Notes under the pieces: model-generated | Database searches by the model: none | The model's input: the letters and a program-made list of their open reading frames with translations, nothing else | Told to the model about the DNA's origin: nothing | NCBI GenBank assembly: GCA_964434595.1 | Contig: CAYSVP010000005.1 | Span: 1 to 24,000, forward strand | Length of the DNA stretch: 24,000 nt | Source of the DNA: an uncultured Gammaproteobacteria bacterium | GTDB lineage: Bacteria > Patescibacteriota > Microgenomatia > UBA12405 | Direction: 5' to 3' | Translations under genes and position numbers: made by a program | Part shown: piece by piece, positions 3,350 to 24,000 of the stretch | Position numbering within the stretch: the stretch's first letter is position 1 | How the letters are laid out: each line of letters opens with the position of its first letter

Positions 3350-4600
3350 TTATCTTAGAAAACTAAAAGATATAAGAAATAGACCACAAGCAAGGACAAT
3401 TATTAGAATGGTTGGTAGAGAAATACCTGATTCGGGGACGGCAGAATCAGTACTAGGATAAGCAACTCTAACTGTCGGCACTAAGGTTGGGGTAGGAGTC
3501 GGAGCTAAAGTAGCTGAAGCTGAAGCGGTAAAAGCCATTGTAGAATTCTCAGCTGCCTGAACAACAAAATTACGAGTAATTGTTTGATAAACTCCAGAAA
3601 TTGGATCCAAAACCTTGGCGGTAATAGTATGATTTCCTGGTTCTAGTTCTGAAGTTGGTGACCAATGCCATGAACCAGTACTATCTGATTGTGATTGACT
3701 GGAAATCTCATTTGAAGAATTGACAGTAATAATAATTTGACTGTTCGCCGGAGCAACACCAAAAAAATCAGGTAAACCTGTATTAATATTTTCATTTTCC
3801 TTGGGATTTAAAATATCGATATTCTTCGAAAGAGTGGGTGATAATTGATTTGTAATTACAGGTGTAAAATCCGAAGTAGTGGTAGTTGGAACCGCAACTG
3901 GAACGTTAGTGAAATAATCCTGACCAATAGTAATGTCTGGTACTGGATTATTACGATCAGTAGTATTAACTAATTGAGTAACTATGCCATTTTCAGAAAT
4001 TACGATCAAATCTTCACTGGCTGAAGAATTTGTTGGTGAGTACCAATCGGTTTTTGATTCATTAAAACTATTGGCTAGAGGAATATTCCAGTTTCCATCG
4101 GAAGTGGTAAAAGCTGATAATGGCGAAGCTCCGGGAATATTCAAATAAACAATAACATTTTTAGCTGGATTTTTGTCAACAGTAATAACCCGTCCCCAAG
4201 CTAATTTGGCCTCTACAGCAATAGTACTAGGTTGACTACCTGTCTTGACGATATAATCCGGTTTGGTAATTTTCTGACCGTTACTGATAACAGTATAAGG
4301 AATACTTGTATTCGAAGGAAGATTATATATTTGAAAATAATGTAACTTTCCTTGATCTTGAAAATCATCTAGTGTTTGATTATTAATCATCAAAGATACT
4401 AAACAAGTATCGATGGTTGAAAAAGAAATTGCAGCTGATTTGTCGGTAATATTGGTAATTTGTGGATTAACTGGTTGGCAATTGCCACTAGCTTTTATAT
4501 TGGTATTGATTTTTTGACGGGTAGCAAAAACTCCAACAAAAACAGTTAGTGTTAACAATAACAAACCAAAAATAGTAGGTATCTTTTTTTCTTTATTCAT
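3350..4600 (-). CDS. Cell-surface multidomain protein (Fn3-like + prealbumin/CarboxypepD_reg-like + bacterial Ig-like domains) with an N-terminal signal/anchor and a C-terminal TM sorting-like tail
   Basis: 416 aa. N-terminal hydrophobic segment IPTIFGLLLLTLTVFVGVFA. Beta-rich domains, e.g. AWGRVITVDKNPAKNVIVYLN..TTSDGNWNIPL and STGSWHWSPTSELEPGNHTITAKV. A Thr/Pro linker APTPTPTLVPT. C-terminus VPESGISLPTILIIVLACGLFLISFSFLR. Confidence 0.7.
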   Translation of the reverse strand: MNKEKKIPTIFGLLLLTLTVFVGVFATRQKINTNIKASGNCQPVNPQITNITDKSAAISFSTIDTCLVSLMINNQTLDDFQDQGKLHYFQIYNLPSNTSIPYTVISNGQKITKPDYIVKTGSQPSTIAVEAKLAWGRVITVDKNPAKNVIVYLNIPGASPLSAFTTSDGNWNIPLANSFNESKTDWYSPTNSSASEDLIVISENGIVTQLVNTTDRNNPVPDITIGQDYFTNVPVAVPTTTTSDFTPVITNQLSPTLSKNIDILNPKENENINTGLPDFFGVAPANSQIIITVNSSNEISSQSQSDSTGSWHWSPTSELEPGNHTITAKVLDPISGVYQTITRNFVVQAAENSTMAFTASASATLAPTPTPTLVPTVRVAYPSTDSAVPESGISLPTILIIVLACGLFLISFSFLR

Positions 4601-4892
4601 TATTGGATGGTATTTGATTGTTCATTAATGATTCATCGATAATCGGGACCGAAGAAACACTACTGGAACTGGCCTCTTCAATTGAGGAAAAATAATTATC
4701 ACGTTTTTCAATCTGATCGAGAAGACTGGTGTCCAGATTAGGATCAATCGGATCTAGGAGATTATTATTTTGAGCATTATTAATTGGTTTCATTAAATTA
4801 ATATAGCTTTCTTGGACGACAAAAACAAAGATGGTAATAAATGTCAGAATACTAATTATCAGAAAGTAGTTGTTTATTTTACTTTTTTTCAT
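4593..4892 (-). CDS. Small N-terminally anchored acidic membrane protein (hypothetical)
   Basis: I prefer the internal ATG at 4892 (MKKSKINNYFLIISILTFITIFVFVV...), which gives a basic N-terminus plus a TM. The track's longer form (to 4976) would overlap about 100 nt of the upstream gene. Overlaps its neighbours by 14 nt and 8 nt. Confidence 0.5.
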   Translation of the reverse strand: MKKSKINNYFLIISILTFITIFVFVVQESYINLMKPINNAQNNNLLDPIDPNLDTSLLDQIEKRDNYFSSIEEASSSSVSSVPIIDESLMNNQIPSNNE

Positions 4893-5523
4893 TTGTTTTT
4901 TGCCAATAAGAAAATGTGGTAGTGAAATTGGTAACCAGAGGATTTTGCCCATCATTTTCTTGGTTATCAGTATCATTATTAAAGGTAATTTTAGAAATAT
5001 TAATTAGCCGGCGATTATTTAATAAATCAGCGACAATTTTGACACTATCGATAAAAGGATTTTTTATATCCAGAGAGATATCGTAATTATTGATATTGGA
5101 ATCTTTTTTAACTTCTTCATCCAGATCATTTAGATCAAAACTACCGAAGTTGAATGAGGTACCGTATTTATTGAGTGTTTCTTTTATTTGATTGAAGGAT
5201 TGGTAAAAATTTGGTCTACTGGGAAGGCTGGATTCGATAATCTGATAGCGACCCTGGGCTAAAGAATAGCTTTCCTGGGCTAGCATCAGACTATTAATTT
5301 TATCTTTCATTTGATTGTTGGTTATTTCTTTTGACTTTATTTCGCCGATTAGGGAAAAAATAGTTTGGGCGGTCGGTTTGATAGCAAAAAACAAAAAGAA
5401 GGAAATCAGAAGAAAAGTGATAGCTATCTCGAAACGAAGCATAAATTTTTTATTCTCTTGTTGTTTTTTAAGGAAATCGGATAGTTTTTGAGCCCCATCG
5501 GAAGTATATTGGAATGGTTTCAT
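4879..5523 (-). CDS. pilO: PilO-like type IV pilus/alignment-complex protein (bitopic, coiled coil + C-terminal alpha/beta domain)
   Basis: 214 aa. Cytoplasmic N-terminus, one TM (FEIAITFLLISFFLFFAI), a coiled-coil segment and a C-terminal domain with PilO-like periodicity. Lies immediately downstream of, and overlapping (ATGA), a PilN-like gene. Confidence 0.5.
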   Translation of the reverse strand: MKPFQYTSDGAQKLSDFLKKQQENKKFMLRFEIAITFLLISFFLFFAIKPTAQTIFSLIGEIKSKEITNNQMKDKINSLMLAQESYSLAQGRYQIIESSLPSRPNFYQSFNQIKETLNKYGTSFNFGSFDLNDLDEEVKKDSNINNYDISLDIKNPFIDSVKIVADLLNNRRLINISKITFNNDTDNQENDGQNPLVTNFTTTFSYWQKTNEKK

Positions 5524-12046: not shown

Positions 12047-12319
12047 ATGAAGCTGACCAAGATGTTTTTGGTCTTAGTTTTAGCAAGTTTGGTTTTTGGA
12101 AAAAGTGCCTGGGCCTTAACACCGACAAAAGAAGCTGAAGAGATAGTAACTTTATCACCAACAACTGCAATCTCAATAGAACCAACAGTTCCAGATAAAA
12201 TTGTGGAAACACAATCGGAAAACGATTTATCAAAATGGTTTTTATTCATCACAATTGGTTTATTAGCTTTGATAATTACAGTACAGGTTTGGCCGGAGAA
12301 AAAAGAAAAAATTGAGTAA
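12047..12319 (+). CDS. Small secreted protein with a cleavable signal peptide and a C-terminal TM anchor (hypothetical)
   Basis: MKLTKMFLVLVLASLVFGKSAWA|LTPT... has an AXA cleavage site. A Thr/Pro/Glu-rich spacer follows, then C-terminal FLFITIGLLALIITVQVW and a charged tail. Preferred over the antisense 11917-12387 ORF because of its promoter geometry and signal peptide. Confidence 0.5.
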   Translation: MKLTKMFLVLVLASLVFGKSAWALTPTKEAEEIVTLSPTTAISIEPTVPDKIVETQSENDLSKWFLFITIGLLALIITVQVWPEKKEKIE

Positions 12320-12327
12320 AGATCAGA

Positions 12328-12333
12328 TATAAT
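12328..12333 (+). promoter_or_regulatory. Putative -10 box TATAAT, 7 nt upstream of the in-frame ATG at 12341
   Basis: Reads cagaTATAATggtggaaATG. It overlaps the track's ATG at 12332, suggesting the real start may be 12341. Confidence 0.3.
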
Positions 12334-13084
12334 GGTGGAAATGCAAAATCGAACATCTTGGAATAAAGTTAGTCGGTGGTATGACAAACAAGTCGGAGAT
12401 AAAGGCCATTATTATCATGAACATGTAATTATTCCGGGAATTAAAAAAATAATTGATTGGGATAGTTCGAAATCGCTATTAGATTTAGCCTGTGGTCAGG
12501 GAGTTTTGGGCAGGGAATGGCCGGGAAATAAGTATTTGGGAATTGATGTGGCGAGTAATTTGATTGCTGAAGCGAGACTAAGGGATAAAAACAATCAACA
12601 TAAATATCAGATAGGAGATGTTACTAAAAAATTAAAATTAGAAGAAAAGTTTGATGAGGCGATAATAATATTAGCTTTTCAAAATTTAAATAATCCAGCA
12701 ATGGTAATAAAAAATATCAGAGAGAATTTGACAGACAGAGGAAAGCTGTTGCTGGTTATTAACCATCCGGCATTCCGGGTACCAAAACACAGTGATTGGA
12801 TAGTAAAAAACTGGCGACAATTCCGAATGGTCGATAATTATATGTCACCTTTAGAAATTCCAATTGAAAGCCGTCCATTTGATAAGGTCGACAATCAAAC
12901 TACTTATTCTTTTCATTATCCCCTATCAATGATTAGTCAGATGTTATTTGATAACGGTTTGGTAATAGAAAAAATTGAGGAGTGGATTTCGGACAAAAAA
13001 TCTGAAGGTAGTATGGCAAAAATTGAAAATAAAGCCAGAAAAGAAATTCCCTTATTCATGGCAATTTTAGCAATGGTAAAATGA
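12332..13084 (+). CDS. Class I SAM-dependent methyltransferase
   Basis: Motif I LLDLACGQGVLG, post-I acidic GIDV and motif II/III region AIIILAFQNL. The start may be 12341 (MQNRTSW...) rather than 12332. Confidence 0.8.
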   Translation: MVEMQNRTSWNKVSRWYDKQVGDKGHYYHEHVIIPGIKKIIDWDSSKSLLDLACGQGVLGREWPGNKYLGIDVASNLIAEARLRDKNNQHKYQIGDVTKKLKLEEKFDEAIIILAFQNLNNPAMVIKNIRENLTDRGKLLLVINHPAFRVPKHSDWIVKNWRQFRMVDNYMSPLEIPIESRPFDKVDNQTTYSFHYPLSMISQMLFDNGLVIEKIEEWISDKKSEGSMAKIENKARKEIPLFMAILAMVK

Positions 13085-13088
13085 TTCT

Positions 13089-13295
13089 ATGCTAAAGACA
13101 AAACACAAAATCATTATTGTCGGAGCCTGGTTTGTAATTTTAGTTTTGATTTGTGTAATGAGCGCCAAATTTGAATTAAACAAAATTGATAATTGTGCAA
13201 AGTTACGAATCAGAGCATTTAACCAAAAAGATTTTACCTGGTCGGGAATTGTCGAACAAAATTCTGCTGGAACTTATCAACCGAAATGTTTATGA
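13089..13295 (+). CDS. Small membrane-anchored hypothetical protein (68 aa)
   Basis: ATG lies 4 nt after the methyltransferase stop. N-terminal TM IIIVGAWFVILVLICVM. The 3' end overlaps the convergent OFOR-beta stop by 6 nt. Confidence 0.4.
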   Translation: MLKTKHKIIIVGAWFVILVLICVMSAKFELNKIDNCAKLRIRAFNQKDFTWSGIVEQNSAGTYQPKCL

Positions 13296-13913
13296 CTTGA
13301 GTTGTTTACCAAAAGTAACACACGTTTGACGAATATCGATTAAAGAAAACTCAGGATTGGTAATAGCTGATTTGATAGCCGAGGTAATTTCTGGAAGCTC
13401 TGTACCATCAACTGATTTAACATCAATTTTGGGATTTACTGACTGAAGAACTTTGACTGGATTAAGAGCAAAACTGGGCGCACCTAGAGGGGTAGATTTA
13501 GTCTTGGAACCTTGAGGAGTAGTAGGACTAGTCTGCCCGGTAGTTAAGCTGTAGAGCTGGTTATTGGCAACTAAAACAGTGATATCTAAGTTATAACGAG
13601 CCGCAGAAAAAAGATGATTAAAGCCTTCTCCGTAAACTCCACCGTCACCACCAATAGCAATTACTGTTAATTTTGGATTAGCCATTTTTACTCCCATAGC
13701 AGTCGCAATGCTGCGACCATGGAGAGAGTGAATACCGTAAGTACTAAAAAAGTCAGCCATATTACCAACACAACCAATATCAAAAACTAAAACGACATCT
13801 TTTTTGGGAATTTGTAATTGAGTAATGGCTTGTTGAATAGCAGCGTAGAGGACAAAGTTATTACAACCAGGACAAAAAGTAGGAGTAATATTGGATTTTA
13901 GATTTTGAATCAT
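13290..13913 (-). CDS. 2-oxoacid:ferredoxin oxidoreductase, beta (TPP-binding) subunit
   Basis: FCPGCNNF, DIGCVGN and a C-terminal RQTC supply four Cys for a [4Fe-4S] cluster. TPP motif GGDGGVYGEGFNHL...NN. ATGA overlap with the alpha subunit gene. Confidence 0.85.
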   Translation of the reverse strand: MIQNLKSNITPTFCPGCNNFVLYAAIQQAITQLQIPKKDVVLVFDIGCVGNMADFFSTYGIHSLHGRSIATAMGVKMANPKLTVIAIGGDGGVYGEGFNHLFSAARYNLDITVLVANNQLYSLTTGQTSPTTPQGSKTKSTPLGAPSFALNPVKVLQSVNPKIDVKSVDGTELPEITSAIKSAITNPEFSLIDIRQTCVTFGKQLKS

Positions 13914-21234: not shown

Positions 21235-22512
21235 ATGCTTAAAAACTTGACGGTTTTTAAATCTGACAAACAAAAAATTAATGACAGTAAATTCGAAGTA
21301 GTGGAGAGAAAGGGTGTTGGACATCCGGATAATTTATGCGATGCCATTGCTGAAAAAATCTCGGTTGAATATTCACAGCACTGTTTTAAAAAATACGGTA
21401 TAGTACTGCGTCATATGGTGGATAAAGTAGCCATATTAGGGGGATCATCTAAGGTCAGTTTTGGACACGGGGAAATGACAGCGCCAATACGACTATTACT
21501 TAATGGTAGATTTACTCATCAATTTAAAGAGGAAAAGATTGATTATTTAGATATTACTAATCGAGTTATTAAAAATCATTTTAAAAATATTTTTCCGTTA
21601 TTAGATACCGAAAAATGGTTAAAAATTGTTGATAATACCCACTTTACCCAAGGACCCGGAGTAGTATACAGTCAAGACGGGACAACAAAAAATGAAAGAA
21701 GTCAATTTTTTTGCGTATCTGACGATAATTTTGCAAAACATCATTGCAATGGATTCCGGTCAAATGATACCTCGACTACGGTTAGTTATGCACCTCTATC
21801 AGATCTAGAAAAAATAGTAATTCTGTCAGAAAATTGGCTAAATTGTTCAGATTTTAAACAAAATCATTTATATGTCGGCAGTGATATAAAAGTGATGGGA
21901 AAAAGAATTAATAAAAATATTGAATTAACTTTATGTGTGCCGTTTATTGCTGACTATACACCTGACCAAAATTTTTATATTCAAAAATTAGGAGAATTAA
22001 AACAGTTATTAATCGATAAAATTAAAAAAGAATTTCCATTATATTTAGTAGATATTTTTTTAAACACCCGGGATAATTTTAATAATCAGGATATTTATTT
22101 AACGGCAATTGGTAGTGCAGTTGAAAGCGGTGACGAAGGGGCAGTAGGACGGGGAAATAGAACTAATGGAGTAATTCCATTTACCAGAAATATGAGTACT
22201 GAAGCACCTTGTGGAAAAAATCCGGTATATCATACCGGAAAAATTTTTACTGTTATTGGTGATATTGTGGCCGAGGAAATATATAAAAAATTAGGAGTAG
22301 AGAATACGATTTATTTAACTTCCCAAATGGGTCGGGATATGAATGATCCATGGCAGGTTACGGTGGCACTAGATGGATATAAAAACGATATTAATATTGA
22401 TCTGAAGAAAAAAATTGAAAAGATTGTAGAAAAAAATTTAAGACGACATTGGGAAGTAACTCAACAAATTATCGATGGACAGATCAAGATTTACGAACCA
22501 AATTTATCCTAA
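21235..22512 (+). CDS. mat: Archaeal-class S-adenosylmethionine synthetase (methionine adenosyltransferase, PF01941-type)
   Basis: Blocks VERKGVGHPDNLCDAIAE, SNDTSTTVSYAPLS, VGSDIKVMG and YLTAIGSAVESGDEGAVGRGNRTNGVIPFTRNMSTEAPCGKNPVYHTGKI match archaeal MAT hallmarks as I recall them. The bacterial MetK hallmarks (GAGDQG, GGGAFSGKD) are absent. Confidence 0.88.
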   Translation: MLKNLTVFKSDKQKINDSKFEVVERKGVGHPDNLCDAIAEKISVEYSQHCFKKYGIVLRHMVDKVAILGGSSKVSFGHGEMTAPIRLLLNGRFTHQFKEEKIDYLDITNRVIKNHFKNIFPLLDTEKWLKIVDNTHFTQGPGVVYSQDGTTKNERSQFFCVSDDNFAKHHCNGFRSNDTSTTVSYAPLSDLEKIVILSENWLNCSDFKQNHLYVGSDIKVMGKRINKNIELTLCVPFIADYTPDQNFYIQKLGELKQLLIDKIKKEFPLYLVDIFLNTRDNFNNQDIYLTAIGSAVESGDEGAVGRGNRTNGVIPFTRNMSTEAPCGKNPVYHTGKIFTVIGDIVAEEIYKKLGVENTIYLTSQMGRDMNDPWQVTVALDGYKNDINIDLKKKIEKIVEKNLRRHWEVTQQIIDGQIKIYEPNLS

Positions 22513-22530
22513 TTAAAGGATTTTTCTAAA

Positions 22531-23220
22531 TTAGAATTGTATTTTTTCTCCAGGAAAAATACTTTTGGTCGCACCAGAGAGTGAATAAATATTGACCGGA
22601 TCAAAACCCACTGATTCAGCTATTAAATCTTTGGATATTATTAAACCTGACCGTTCGGTTAAGGCAACTAAATCACCTTTTTGTTGATTAATAAAATTGT
22701 CAACTGAATTAATTTTTTCCGAAGTAAAATGACAAAGAACTGATCTGTTATTAAGAAGATTTAATCCATTATCGTATGAGTAATTAGCATCATTTTCCTC
22801 TGATACGGTAGATATAGTTTTTCCCATAATAATAGCGCCAGCACTACCACCATAAATTAAACCACCTTGGTTATAAAACTCGAGTAAAAGATTATTAAAC
22901 CCAGTTTTAATAATATGATCGAGGAGTTTATAGGTATTACCACCACCAATATAAATACCACTAAACTTTTCCAAATCTTTAATTGTTTTGTTTTTTAAAT
23001 CTGTCCACATACTAATTTCAGTAAAATCGTCTGAGGCTTTGGTTAGAGTTGAGGTGATCCAATCAAAACAACTTTCATAGCCATTTTCTTTGGGCCCTAG
23101 GGCAATAGGGATATAAATAATTTTTTTAGTTGGCAGTTGTGATAGAAATTTTTTGTCAAGATGAAGACTATCGGCTGATCCCCCACCACCACCAAGAAAC
23201 AGTTTACCTTTACTAATCAT
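22531..23220 (-). CDS. Peptidase S51 family protein (dipeptidase E / cyanophycinase-like Ser-His-Glu hydrolase), cytoplasmic
   Basis: IYIGGGNTYKLLDHI and LIYGGSAGAIIMG (nucleophile Ser), VLCHF (His) and LTERSG (Glu) align with my recollection of PepE. No signal peptide. The ATG overlaps the upstream stop by 8 nt (ATGATTAG). Confidence 0.8.
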   Translation of the reverse strand: MISKGKLFLGGGGGSADSLHLDKKFLSQLPTKKIIYIPIALGPKENGYESCFDWITSTLTKASDDFTEISMWTDLKNKTIKDLEKFSGIYIGGGNTYKLLDHIIKTGFNNLLLEFYNQGGLIYGGSAGAIIMGKTISTVSEENDANYSYDNGLNLLNNRSVLCHFTSEKINSVDNFINQQKGDLVALTERSGLIISKDLIAESVGFDPVNIYSLSGATKSIFPGEKIQF

Positions 23221-24000
23221 GAGAATATTTTAGTTCACCAAGAACCACTGTTAAATAATCAGATTTGACACTAGTGCCTTTTAGTTGTTTGATCAACATG
23301 TCGGTGGGTTGATTAATATTAAGCTCAACATCTGGACAATGAGTAGACAGTTTATCTAACAATAGACGATTAAAATTTCGCGTATTTTCCTGAGCTAAAG
23401 ATTCGATTGACTGATTTAATGGAGACACAAGTTTAGTCCATTTTTCCCAGTAATTATAATATTTCTTGGCTTGTTCCTGACTGATTAAATGTTCTCCCAG
23501 GGCATTGTTAACTAATTTTTTGGAAAATAATCTAAAACGATAACCGTGCTCTTTATTGGATGGTTTTAAGCCTTCGCCAGCCAGTAAAGAAAGGGTATGA
23601 GAACAGGCGGCAACGTCACCGGTTATTTCATGAGAAACCCGACCATCACCTAAAATATCAAAATAGGAACCTCCTTGTAAAATCCATTTAATCCTCTCTA
23701 AACCAAAACCAATATCACTGAGAGTTAAGTTTGGTCTGGTTTTCTGAGGAAGATCCTGAATATATGAAGCATCACCAATTTCCAGACCATCATAGATAAT
23801 AAACATTTTCTGACTGTTAATTATTTTATCCCCCCACTGTTGTTGATATGGTTTATTTTTGAAAGAAAAATCATCTTTATTTAAACCAAGCTGAACAAAT
23901 AAATCCAACCAGGTTTGTAAATACTGGTAATGTTGTTCCTGACTACCATTAAGATGACAAGTTGAGACGTTGATAAAACTAGTCGAAGTACCCTCACAGA
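23213..24000 (-). CDS. Alanyl-tRNA-synthetase-like protein: class IIc catalytic core (C-terminal part seen) + tRNA-recognition helical domain only; no editing or C-Ala domains; 5' end off-window
   Basis: Motif 3 DIGFGLERI (23693-23716) and PSNKEHGYRFRLFSKK (compare AlaRS PSNENRGYVLRRIIRR) identify the family. The track's TTG at 23908 is not the start. Manual translation stays open to base 24000 (...CEGTSTSFINVSTCHLNGSQEQHYQYLQTW-LDLF...). The protein stops about 150 aa after motif 3. Confidence 0.8.
   Translation of the reverse strand, partial: CEGTSTSFINVSTCHLNGSQEQHYQYLQTWLDLFVQLGLNKDDFSFKNKPYQQQWGDKIINSQKMFIIYDGLEIGDASYIQDLPQKTRPNLTLSDIGFGLERIKWILQGGSYFDILGDGRVSHEITGDVAACSHTLSLLAGEGLKPSNKEHGYRFRLFSKKLVNNALGEHLISQEQAKKYYNYWEKWTKLVSPLNQSIESLAQENTRNFNRLLLDKLSTHCPDVELNINQPTDMLIKQLKGTSVKSDYLTVVLGELKYSHD

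Follow-up and report, generated by a model that had tools for sequence, protein, structure and literature searches.

An AlaRS-like protein family linked to Peptidase_S51 and MAT-like genes in Patescibacteria and DPANN archaea, with a possible role outside translation

The locus and its three genes

The DNA described here (the window) consists of 24,000 nucleotides, positions 1 to 24,000 of the forward strand of contig CAYSVP010000005.1 in GenBank assembly GCA_964434595.1, which was deposited as an uncultured Gammaproteobacteria bacterium and is placed by GTDB in the Patescibacteriota. At its far edge lies a gene related to alanyl-tRNA synthetase (AlaRS), called AlaRS-like hereafter, next to genes for a Peptidase_S51 hydrolase (S51) and a divergent methionine adenosyltransferase (MAT-like). 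The window holds the 3' part of the AlaRS-like gene on the minus strand (23213..24000), which encodes residues 139-399 and the stop codon; the 5' end is past the window edge. Translation of 23998..23213 gives 261 residues and a TAG stop at 23213-23215, and the S51 gene comes next. The full protein, P0001, has 399 aa. It comes from an independent assembly (locus L001) that has the same DNA as the window wherever the two overlap, and it is 100% identical to the window translation.

The AlaRS-like protein is built from two parts of AlaRS, its catalytic domain and its helical tRNA-recognition (ATL) domain. It has neither the editing domain nor the C-Ala domain, and it ends about 105 residues past the PSN..GY helix. 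A preliminary description of the window had listed five blocks with counterparts in AlaRS, and all five were found where it had placed them, with one small correction (EIGDASYIQ spans 23756-23782, not up to 23785). Motif 2 reads QPVLRTQ in the family and QRCVRAG in AlaRS. The FINVSTCHLNGSQE block occupies 23936-23977 on the minus strand, which also carries the elements that follow. The STSFIN block (23969..23986) matches HTFFEM or LTLFEM of AlaRS and, according to the alignments, carries F146 together with N148, which replaces the Met of FEM. In the QQWGDKIINSQKMFIIYD block (23789..23842), W..GDK stands for W.MGDTGPCGPC or WAGGGNAGPC of AlaRS. The alignments thus agree with the preliminary description that the GPCGPC segment (GNAGPC in the second AlaRS form) is lost and the Trp kept, W193 being present in 186/200 (conservation counts throughout refer to 200 family representatives). 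The GLEIGDASY strand (23762..23788) carries G213, D214, A215 and S216, and its LEIGDASY part is the equivalent of IEIWNIVF in bacterial and LEVATLVF in archaeal AlaRS. The class II motif 3, SDIGFGLER (23693..23719, with DIGFGLER at 23693-23716), is VDTGMGLER in AlaRS and carries D233 and R240. The GEGLKPSNKEHGYRFR block lies at 23531-23578. The tRNA-recognition (ATL/Mid1) domain contributes a basic helix, PSNKEHGYRFRLFSKK (23516..23563), which carries N286 and whose family sequence PSNKEHGYRFR is aligned to PSNENRGYVLRR of AlaRS. It also contributes the QENTRNFNR helix (23366..23392), which is aligned with EEEQFARTL of AlaRS and is conserved at E342 (189/200) and R345 (175/200).

The S51 gene encodes a 229-aa member of the PepE/cyanophycinase family (22531..23220, minus strand; PF03575, E 6e-24). 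Its start overlaps the stop of the AlaRS-like gene by 8 nt, ATGATTAG (23213..23220, minus strand), which points to translational coupling of the two genes; overlap or tight spacing of the pair is found in most related loci. The catalytic triad Ser126-His164-Glu189 is intact, and the partners of the family keep it as well (S126 and H164 in 39/39, E189 in 37/39). Among solved structures, those of Lmo0363, PepE and cyanophycinase come closest.

Convergent with the S51 gene, and separated from it by 18 bp (22512-22531), is the gene for the MAT-like protein, a divergent archaeal-type methionine adenosyltransferase of 425 aa (21235..22512, plus strand; PF01941, E 6e-104). The window protein scores 315 bits against NCBIfam cut-offs of 435-577. 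The cluster-linked MAT-like proteins of bacteria and archaea reach 290-345 bits on the five NCBIfam archaeal MAT models, all below threshold, and their catalytic motifs are kept. In TkMAT, His62 and Asn64 are two of the three residues that bind the methionine carboxylate (PMC3853416). The corresponding 'HHN' reads 'RHM' in 24/38 cluster-linked MAT-like proteins, including that of the window (21412-21420, residues 60-62). It is kept in the archaeal clusters and in those that carry inositol and glycosyltransferase genes, and the two MAT-like subtypes track cluster type. A bacterial-type MetK, which would mark the MAT-like protein as an extra copy, was absent from the loci examined, a result that is uninformative. 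In the closest relatives of the window locus (L057, L058, L002, L011 and L012), a gene for a 285-318-aa Amidohydro_2 protein stands between the S51 and MAT-like genes; set against the 18-bp gap, this indicates a clean loss in the window lineage.

Relationship to AlaRS and the amino-acid pocket

A family profile built from 47 members (alignment A1) was searched against PDB sequences and found the AlaRS of A. fulgidus (8e-14) and P. horikoshii (8e-12), bacterial AlaRS (1e-7) and the alpha subunit of glycyl-tRNA synthetase (GlyRS-alpha, 1.6e-3). In the alignment with the A. fulgidus enzyme, F-x-N is matched to FEM, Trp to Trp, GLEIGDA to GLEVATL and SDIGFGLER to VDTGYGLER. A comparison of the family by hhalign with the AlaRS of E. 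coli plus one AlaRS from the Patescibacteria (the candidate phyla radiation, CPR) gave a probability of 98.6%. An AF2 model of the AlaRS-like protein (pLDDT 92.5, pTM 0.90) was searched with Foldseek, and archaeal AlaRS was the top match (E 4e-17), ahead of catalytic fragments of AlaRS, which in turn preceded GlyQ (1.5e-9). The homology to AlaRS and the block correspondences are far beyond chance, and the block-by-block correspondence first proposed from the window holds in profile, profile-profile and fold comparison, including the profile alignment of the full-length protein. Curated models fall short of the family. A Pfam scan of the window fragment alone gave no match, the fragment scored 15.2 bits on TIGR03683 (archaeal AlaRS; cut-off 744.7), and full-length P0001 scored 22.8 bits on PF01411 (tRNA-synt_2c), below the gathering score of 30.3.

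The family descends from an archaeal-type AlaRS. In line with this, a CxxC...C..C element, matched in the alignment to the N-terminus of archaeal AlaRS, is still present in 60/200 members. A deletion of about 60 residues between the first block and the Trp block had been proposed, but it disappears with the choice of reference. The F..W spacing is 80 in E. coli AlaRS, 46 in A. fulgidus AlaRS and 47 in the window protein, which makes the difference 33 residues against E. coli and essentially zero against archaeal AlaRS; the apparent deletion is an artefact of taking E. coli as the reference. The bacterial GlyRS alpha subunit (GlyQ) is the other class IId enzyme, and an origin from it was rejected on both the profile scores (1.6e-3 vs 8e-14) and the Foldseek scores (1.5e-9 vs 4e-17).

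The residues that handle the nucleotide are almost unchanged. In AlaRS, the motif 2 Arg binds the alpha-phosphate, and a Phe (Phe89/90) and the motif 3 Arg sandwich the adenine; Asp235 (E. coli numbering) holds the alpha-amino group and can also bind the hydroxyl of serine (PMC12143591). In the family, Q127, P128 and R131 of motif 2 are each found in 200/200, F146 in 199/200 and R240 in 200/200, while D233 is found in 192/200 and replaced by Glu in the remaining eight. The motif 3 Arg and the Asp of the DTG type are therefore retained, as had been noted. These counts strongly suggest that the protein still binds an adenine nucleotide (R131 at the alpha-phosphate, F146 and R240 around the adenine) and an alpha-amino acyl group (D233).

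The side-chain pocket is different. Val214/Val204 of AlaRS contacts the methyl group of alanine, and the V204A substitution raises the acceptance of serine (PMC12143591). The alanine-pocket features are absent in the window protein, which has EIGDASY for the EIWN(L/I)VF strand and FIN for FEM. N148, in place of the Met of FEM, is conserved in 192/200, G213 in 188/200 and A215 in 133/200. At the position of Asn212 in bacteria, or Thr in archaea, 165/200 members have Asp or Glu (D/E214), and position 216, which corresponds to Val214, varies across the family (S, V, N, I, G or T), with Ser in the window protein. This pocket signature recurs in every gene-cluster type. The alignments strongly indicate a rebuilt pocket that would be larger and more polar or acidic (N148, G213, D/E214, A215 and a small residue at 216), from which we infer that the substrate is not alanine. 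The earlier proposal of a rebuilt pocket with altered specificity is thus partly borne out: the pocket positions are conserved to new identities, which makes a change plausible, but the protein is not an AlaRS with changed specificity, as discussed below.

In the tRNA-recognition domain the basic helix is kept, with P284 and G290 in place, R294 in 180/200 and K298 in 165/200. Its N286 corresponds to Asn303 of AlaRS, which reads the G3:U70 pair jointly with one other residue (PMC6055181); the position is Asn in 130/200 and His in 21. For the other reader, Asp400 of 'YDTYG', there is no conserved equivalent, and the region aligned to it varies and is often gapped. The statement that the acceptor-stem-facing block is kept therefore holds for the Asn303 equivalent and fails for the Asp400 element. 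The net charge of the domain is +1.8 on average, similar to that of one CPR AlaRS, and does not discriminate for RNA binding.

Distribution, selection and gene linkage

A word search found 71 clusters of family members at 90% identity, and an exhaustive profile search found 838 clusters at 50% identity with E<=1e-3, 439 with E<=1e-10 and 284 with E<=1e-30. Almost all members have 320-420 aa. The few that are named by any source are called 'hypothetical protein', and no curated model covers the family. Patchily distributed, the family spans Patescibacteria (Paceibacteria/Parcubacteria, Shapirobacteria, Saccharibacteria and others), DPANN archaea (Woese-, Nano- and Micrarchaeota) and a small number of Bacillota. 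No relatives were found among the viral contigs searched. In the part of the literature that could be searched, no description of the family or of the combination of S51, MAT and AlaRS-like genes was found. The metagenome-assembled genomes of L010, L012 and L016 are typical Patescibacteria in look and are titled 'uncultured Gammaproteobacteria bacterium'; they are probably mislabelled.

The AlaRS-like gene is under strong purifying selection. When the window gene is compared with its closest relatives, the ratio of nonsynonymous to synonymous rates (dN/dS) comes to 0.05-0.10, with dN 0.061 and dS 1.13 for the least saturated pair, and no frameshifts were seen in close orthologues. Together with the near-invariance of the catalytic residues, this supports the earlier view that the gene is not decaying. 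On the contig of L013 a family member occurs together with a canonical bacterial-type AlaRS (421 bits vs E. coli AlaRS), and the AlaRS-like protein is on this ground an extra paralogue, not the AlaRS of the cell. A split AlaRS as in Nanoarchaeum was also considered and was rejected, because the scores on AlaRS profiles are low and a canonical AlaRS coexists with the family.

The neighbours of the AlaRS-like gene were counted by unbiased clustering of open reading frames (ORFs) within 6 kb of it at 51 non-redundant loci. It was found that S51 was present in 42/51 and a MAT-like gene in 39/51. In a reciprocal test, 19 loci were anchored on the MAT-like gene (at least 467 bits on the hidden Markov model of the linked clade, flanked on each side by 3 kb or more). 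An AlaRS-like gene was present in 15 of these, S51 with a canonical prolyl-tRNA synthetase (ProRS) instead in two, and neither in two. Among lower-scoring MAT loci, 0/10 had an AlaRS-like or S51 gene, and these are probably ordinary archaeal MATs. The trio of AlaRS-like, S51 and MAT-like genes recurs across phyla.

Several members of the module are also fused. In P0136, S51 is joined to the AlaRS-like protein exactly at the place of the editing domain. P0205 is a fusion with a GT4 glycosyltransferase, which is 36% identical to the free glycosyltransferase of neighbouring genes (E 3e-83), and S51-GT4 fusions are found in L016 and L018. P0186 (589 aa) carries a C-terminal class I methyltransferase dependent on S-adenosylmethionine (SAM), MTS/TRM5-TYW2-like, which is another link of the family to SAM chemistry.

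Canonical seryl-tRNA synthetase (SerRS) is encoded in or beside the module in 22/51 loci of the first set and in 13 loci of a second set. The linkage takes several arrangements in Parcubacteria, Shapirobacteria, archaea and Bacillota, and in L072, L090 and L091 the order MAT, AlaRS-like, S51, SerRS lies on one strand. SerRS genes were located in L011 (420-1718), L020 (8303-9643), L043 (8368-9738), L044 (5512-6921), L054 (8603-9868), L072 (8932-10245) and L090 (6859-8118); those scanned scored 328-497 bits on TIGR00414 (cut-off 302), while those of L072 and L090 were identified by phmmer only. A variant without an AlaRS-like gene runs from MAT-like through S51 to ProRS (L080 5959-9368, L130 6007-9395, L085 169-3575). 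Its ProRS is of the canonical archaeal/Thermus type (499 bits vs T. thermophilus ProRS) and is followed by genes for an APH-like kinase and for a GT2 or GT4. Beside the archaeal AlaRS-like gene of L043 there is a threonyl-tRNA synthetase (ThrRS) gene (12106-13524), the product of which starts at model position 153/613 and has no N-terminal editing domain.

Sub-lineages add further genes, namely inositol-3-phosphate synthase, GT4 and GT2 glycosyltransferases, APH-like and PSTK-like kinases, NodU-type carbamoyltransferase, Amidohydro_2 and radical-SAM enzymes. Inositol-phosphate synthase and GT4 cluster with the module in L007, L013, L014, L018 and L055; most loci, the window among them, are without these genes. 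In some lineages the module has beside it a radical-SAM gene (generic SPASM/twitch-like, weakly similar to viperin) and a gene for a 171-aa P-loop kinase (L008 6406-7956; L009 13776-14840). The best match of the kinase is PSTK, the seryl-tRNA(Sec) kinase (E 3e-11), and L008 is a locus with such a PSTK-like kinase. The GT4 gene of L014 (4124-5175) and the inositol-phosphate synthase gene of L018 (206-1277) are each split into two or three ORFs, as a result of frameshifts or assembly errors. When PADLOC defence models were run on the trio and accessory genes, nothing was found except a generic radical-SAM/viperin similarity in one accessory gene.

In L057 (2474-12760), which of the loci with long flanks is the closest relative, genes for a helix-turn-helix protein, a resolvase and a large serine recombinase of 566 aa precede the module, and the module lies between two MgsA_C fragments. 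This suggests that the module, or an element adjoining it, is mobile and was inserted in an mgsA/rarA-like gene. The two-component system beside the window MAT-like gene was considered as part of the module and rejected, since four unrelated genes intervene in L057. The remainder of the window resembles an ordinary Patescibacteria chromosome (MetRS, MurJ, FolD, MAP, POR, MacB/HlyD and the two-component system; GC 34%). Three minus-strand ORFs at 940-2388, 4593-4976 and 4879-5523 (482, 127 and 214 aa) had no Pfam match. They adjoin a PilN-like gene and a gene for a Big_13-domain protein and may be part of an uncharacterised pilus or surface locus.

Proposed function, alternatives and known systems

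The linkage of the AlaRS-like, S51 and MAT-like genes points to an undescribed aminoacyl-transfer pathway. We infer that the AlaRS-like protein is a catalytically active enzyme that would work as a unit with the S51 hydrolase. The function that we tentatively prefer, and would put a little short of an even chance, lies outside translation: the enzyme would form an adenylate and then transfer the aminoacyl group to a non-ribosomal acceptor. In such a scheme ATP would activate the amino acid as an aminoacyl-adenylate, and the aminoacyl group would be passed on to the acceptor. The S51 hydrolase with its Ser-His-Glu triad, translationally coupled to the synthetase-like enzyme and sometimes fused to it, would act on the aminoacyl bond by cleaving, proofreading or relaying it. 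The acceptor might be related to the product of the MAT-like protein, either SAM or another 5'-adenosyl compound. In the lineages with inositol and glycosyltransferase genes, the acceptor could instead be a glycosyl-inositol, in a class II analogue of MshC chemistry. In sub-lineages the product might be elaborated further by inositol-phosphate synthase, GT4, kinases, carbamoyltransferase and radical-SAM enzymes.

As for the amino acid, our best guess would be a small polar residue such as serine. This guess is based on the small residue at the Val214 position, on the Asp that binds the serine hydroxyl and on the new polar residues of the pocket, as well as on the SerRS linkage and on a PSTK-like kinase found at a single locus. 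Alternatively, D/E214 would suit a cationic side chain or a sulfonium just as well.

Several observations weigh against a tRNA-independent ligase of this kind. The whole tRNA-recognition domain is retained (K287, R292, R294, K298 and Asn286), which argues for an RNA partner, because tRNA-independent paralogues of aminoacyl-tRNA synthetases (aaRSs) usually lose such domains. The Glu of the AlaRS 'C(T/L)E(I/A)' motif has no counterpart in the alignments of the family, and the binding of Mg-ATP may be altered for this reason. The conservation of R131, F146 and R240 would fit ATP and an adenosine-containing acceptor alike; the equivalent Arg, Phe and Glu persist in AcmF (PMC12945691), a transferase discussed below. 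The MAT-like protein is linked by adjacency only, never by fusion, and could be a housekeeping MAT. The window copy itself is a bare trio, with no SerRS, glycosyltransferase, inositol-phosphate synthase or Amidohydro_2 gene beside the AlaRS-like gene.

The most serious alternative is a mechanism like that of AcmF. AcmF is an AlaRS-like, aminoacyl-tRNA-dependent transferase of ascamycin biosynthesis that acts on a 5'-modified adenosine (PMC12945691). By analogy, the AlaRS-like protein would form no adenylate; it would take an aminoacyl-tRNA as donor, charged by SerRS, and bind an adenosine-type acceptor, the product of the MAT-like protein, in the old ATP site, and S51 would remove the aminoacyl group, as has been proposed for AcmE. 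We regard this as possible though unlikely. It would explain together why the tRNA-recognition domain was kept, why SerRS is linked, and why a MAT-like gene and a hydrolase are present. The two-domain architecture is that of AcmF (PMC12945691), the basic helix and Asn286 are conserved, canonical SerRS stands in or beside the operon in many lineages and shares one strand with the trio in three loci, the MAT-like protein would supply a 5'-modified adenosine, and the pairing with a hydrolase parallels AcmF and AcmE. However, AcmF has reportedly lost most ATP-binding residues and carries N-to-Q and D-to-E changes, whereas both Arg residues and the Asp are near-invariant in the family, so that the mechanism conflicts with the intact activation residues. 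Furthermore, the partner synthetase is SerRS, yet the tRNA-recognition domain derives from AlaRS and its Asp400 reader of G3:U70 is absent, and the window copy has no adjoining aaRS gene.

A mini-synthetase that charges a tRNA, tRNA(Ala)-like or other, with an amino acid other than alanine, with S51 as a deacylase editing in cis or in trans in the place of the editing domain, seems rather improbable. A catalytic and tRNA-recognition core suffices in the Tupanvirus mini-AlaRS, even without the conserved Asn and Asp (PMC10036535). The S51 fusion of P0136 sits where such a deacylase would be expected, and aaRS genes are linked to the module in the form of SerRS, the ProRS of the variant operon and the editing-domain-less ThrRS of L043. 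However, a dedicated tRNA gene was found beside the module neither in 40 loci nor in the window. The GT4 fusions and the inositol-phosphate synthase, kinase and carbamoyltransferase neighbours point to small-molecule chemistry, S51 enzymes are known as peptidases and not as aminoacyl-tRNA deacylases, and the role of the MAT-like protein would be left unexplained.

A further reading, close to the altered specificity proposed in the preliminary description, takes the protein for the organism's own AlaRS, its pocket retuned to another amino acid for translation. This is largely refuted and now very improbable: homology and catalytic motifs are indeed retained, but the protein is a 399-aa paralogue without editing and C-Ala domains, it falls below the Pfam and NCBIfam thresholds for AlaRS, the L013 contig has a canonical AlaRS as well, and the family is patchy and travels with S51 and MAT-like genes. 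A decaying or non-catalytic remnant, be it a pseudogene or a regulatory or binding protein, can be dismissed almost entirely, for although some of the signature blocks of AlaRS can no longer be recognised and Pfam does not match the fragment, purifying selection is strong, intact full-length ORFs occur in hundreds of clusters, the catalytic Arg, Arg, Phe and Asp are invariant or nearly so, and the fold is predicted confidently.

A more specific proposal, which we consider a long shot, is that CPR and DPANN organisms, as ultra-small symbionts, share a mobile three-enzyme pathway. The MAT-like enzyme, a neofunctionalised archaeal-type MAT in this view, would make an adenosyl(-sulfonium) compound, this would be aminoacylated via Ser-AMP or Ser-tRNA, and S51 would unmask the product or protect the producer against it. 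If this were true, the product would be a new aminoacyl-adenosyl metabolite, for example an aminoacyl-adenylate mimic directed against host synthetases, or an aminoacylated SAM derivative serving as a signal or an activated building block.

The AlaRS-derived family is large and phylogenetically broad, with an intact nucleotide site, an apparently rebuilt pocket and, as partners, S51 and a distinct clade of MAT. It is common to CPR and DPANN, whose metabolism and interaction with hosts are largely unknown. Knowing the substrate would give three or more 'hypothetical' gene families a function in one step and would show how nature re-engineers the AlaRS pocket, which is known for its Ala/Ser/Gly dilemma. 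The aaRS paralogues known to act in non-translational chemistry (AsnA, MshC, EpmA, the amino acid:carrier protein ligases and AcmF) are few, and each opened new biochemistry.

Among known systems, the N-terminal half of archaeal AlaRS (A. fulgidus 2ztg/3wqy, P. horikoshii 2zze) shares its class IId fold with the family, together with the QPxxR of motif 2, the adenine-stacking Phe, the Trp, the D-x-G-x-G-L-E-R of motif 3 and the PSN..GY..R helix. The family differs from it in having no cradle-loop barrel, editing or C-Ala domain, no GPC segment and no YDTYG (Asp400/Asp450) element, and in reading EIGDA(S)Y for EVATLVF/EIWNIVF and F(I/V)N for FEM. The Tupanvirus mini-AlaRS (PMC10036535) and the small-AlaRS of CPR, DPANN and Asgard (bioRxiv 10.1101/2023.05.29.542759) have a similarly reduced architecture. 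However, both are genuine AlaRSs, charging tRNA(Ala) with alanine, and the small-AlaRS keeps its editing domain, whereas the family has what looks like a rebuilt alanine pocket and a metabolic-looking operon.

AcmF resembles the family in being a truncated AlaRS-like protein with only aminoacylation and tRNA-recognition domains, in its role outside translation and in its clustering with an aaRS (AcmD) and a hydrolase (AcmE). In a comparison by published description, AcmF reportedly carries N219Q and D232E, whereas the family has an N-to-D/E change and keeps the Asp. The partners also differ, being S51, MAT-like and SerRS in the family, as do the hosts (CPR and DPANN vs Streptomyces) and the ancestry, which in the family is of archaeal type. 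With MshC, AsnA, EpmA/PoxA and the SerRS-like amino acid:carrier protein ligases (PMC2922099), all of them tRNA-independent aaRS paralogues that join amino acids to small molecules or to proteins, the likeness lies in the proposed function as an aaRS-derived adenylate-forming ligase. In a subset of relatives it extends to mycothiol biosynthesis, as inositol-3-phosphate synthase, GT4, the aaRS-like protein and an amidase-type hydrolase mirror Ino1, MshA, MshC and MshB. The family is set apart from these ligases by its parent, a class IId AlaRS, by the tRNA-recognition domain that it has kept and by its S51 and MAT-like partners.

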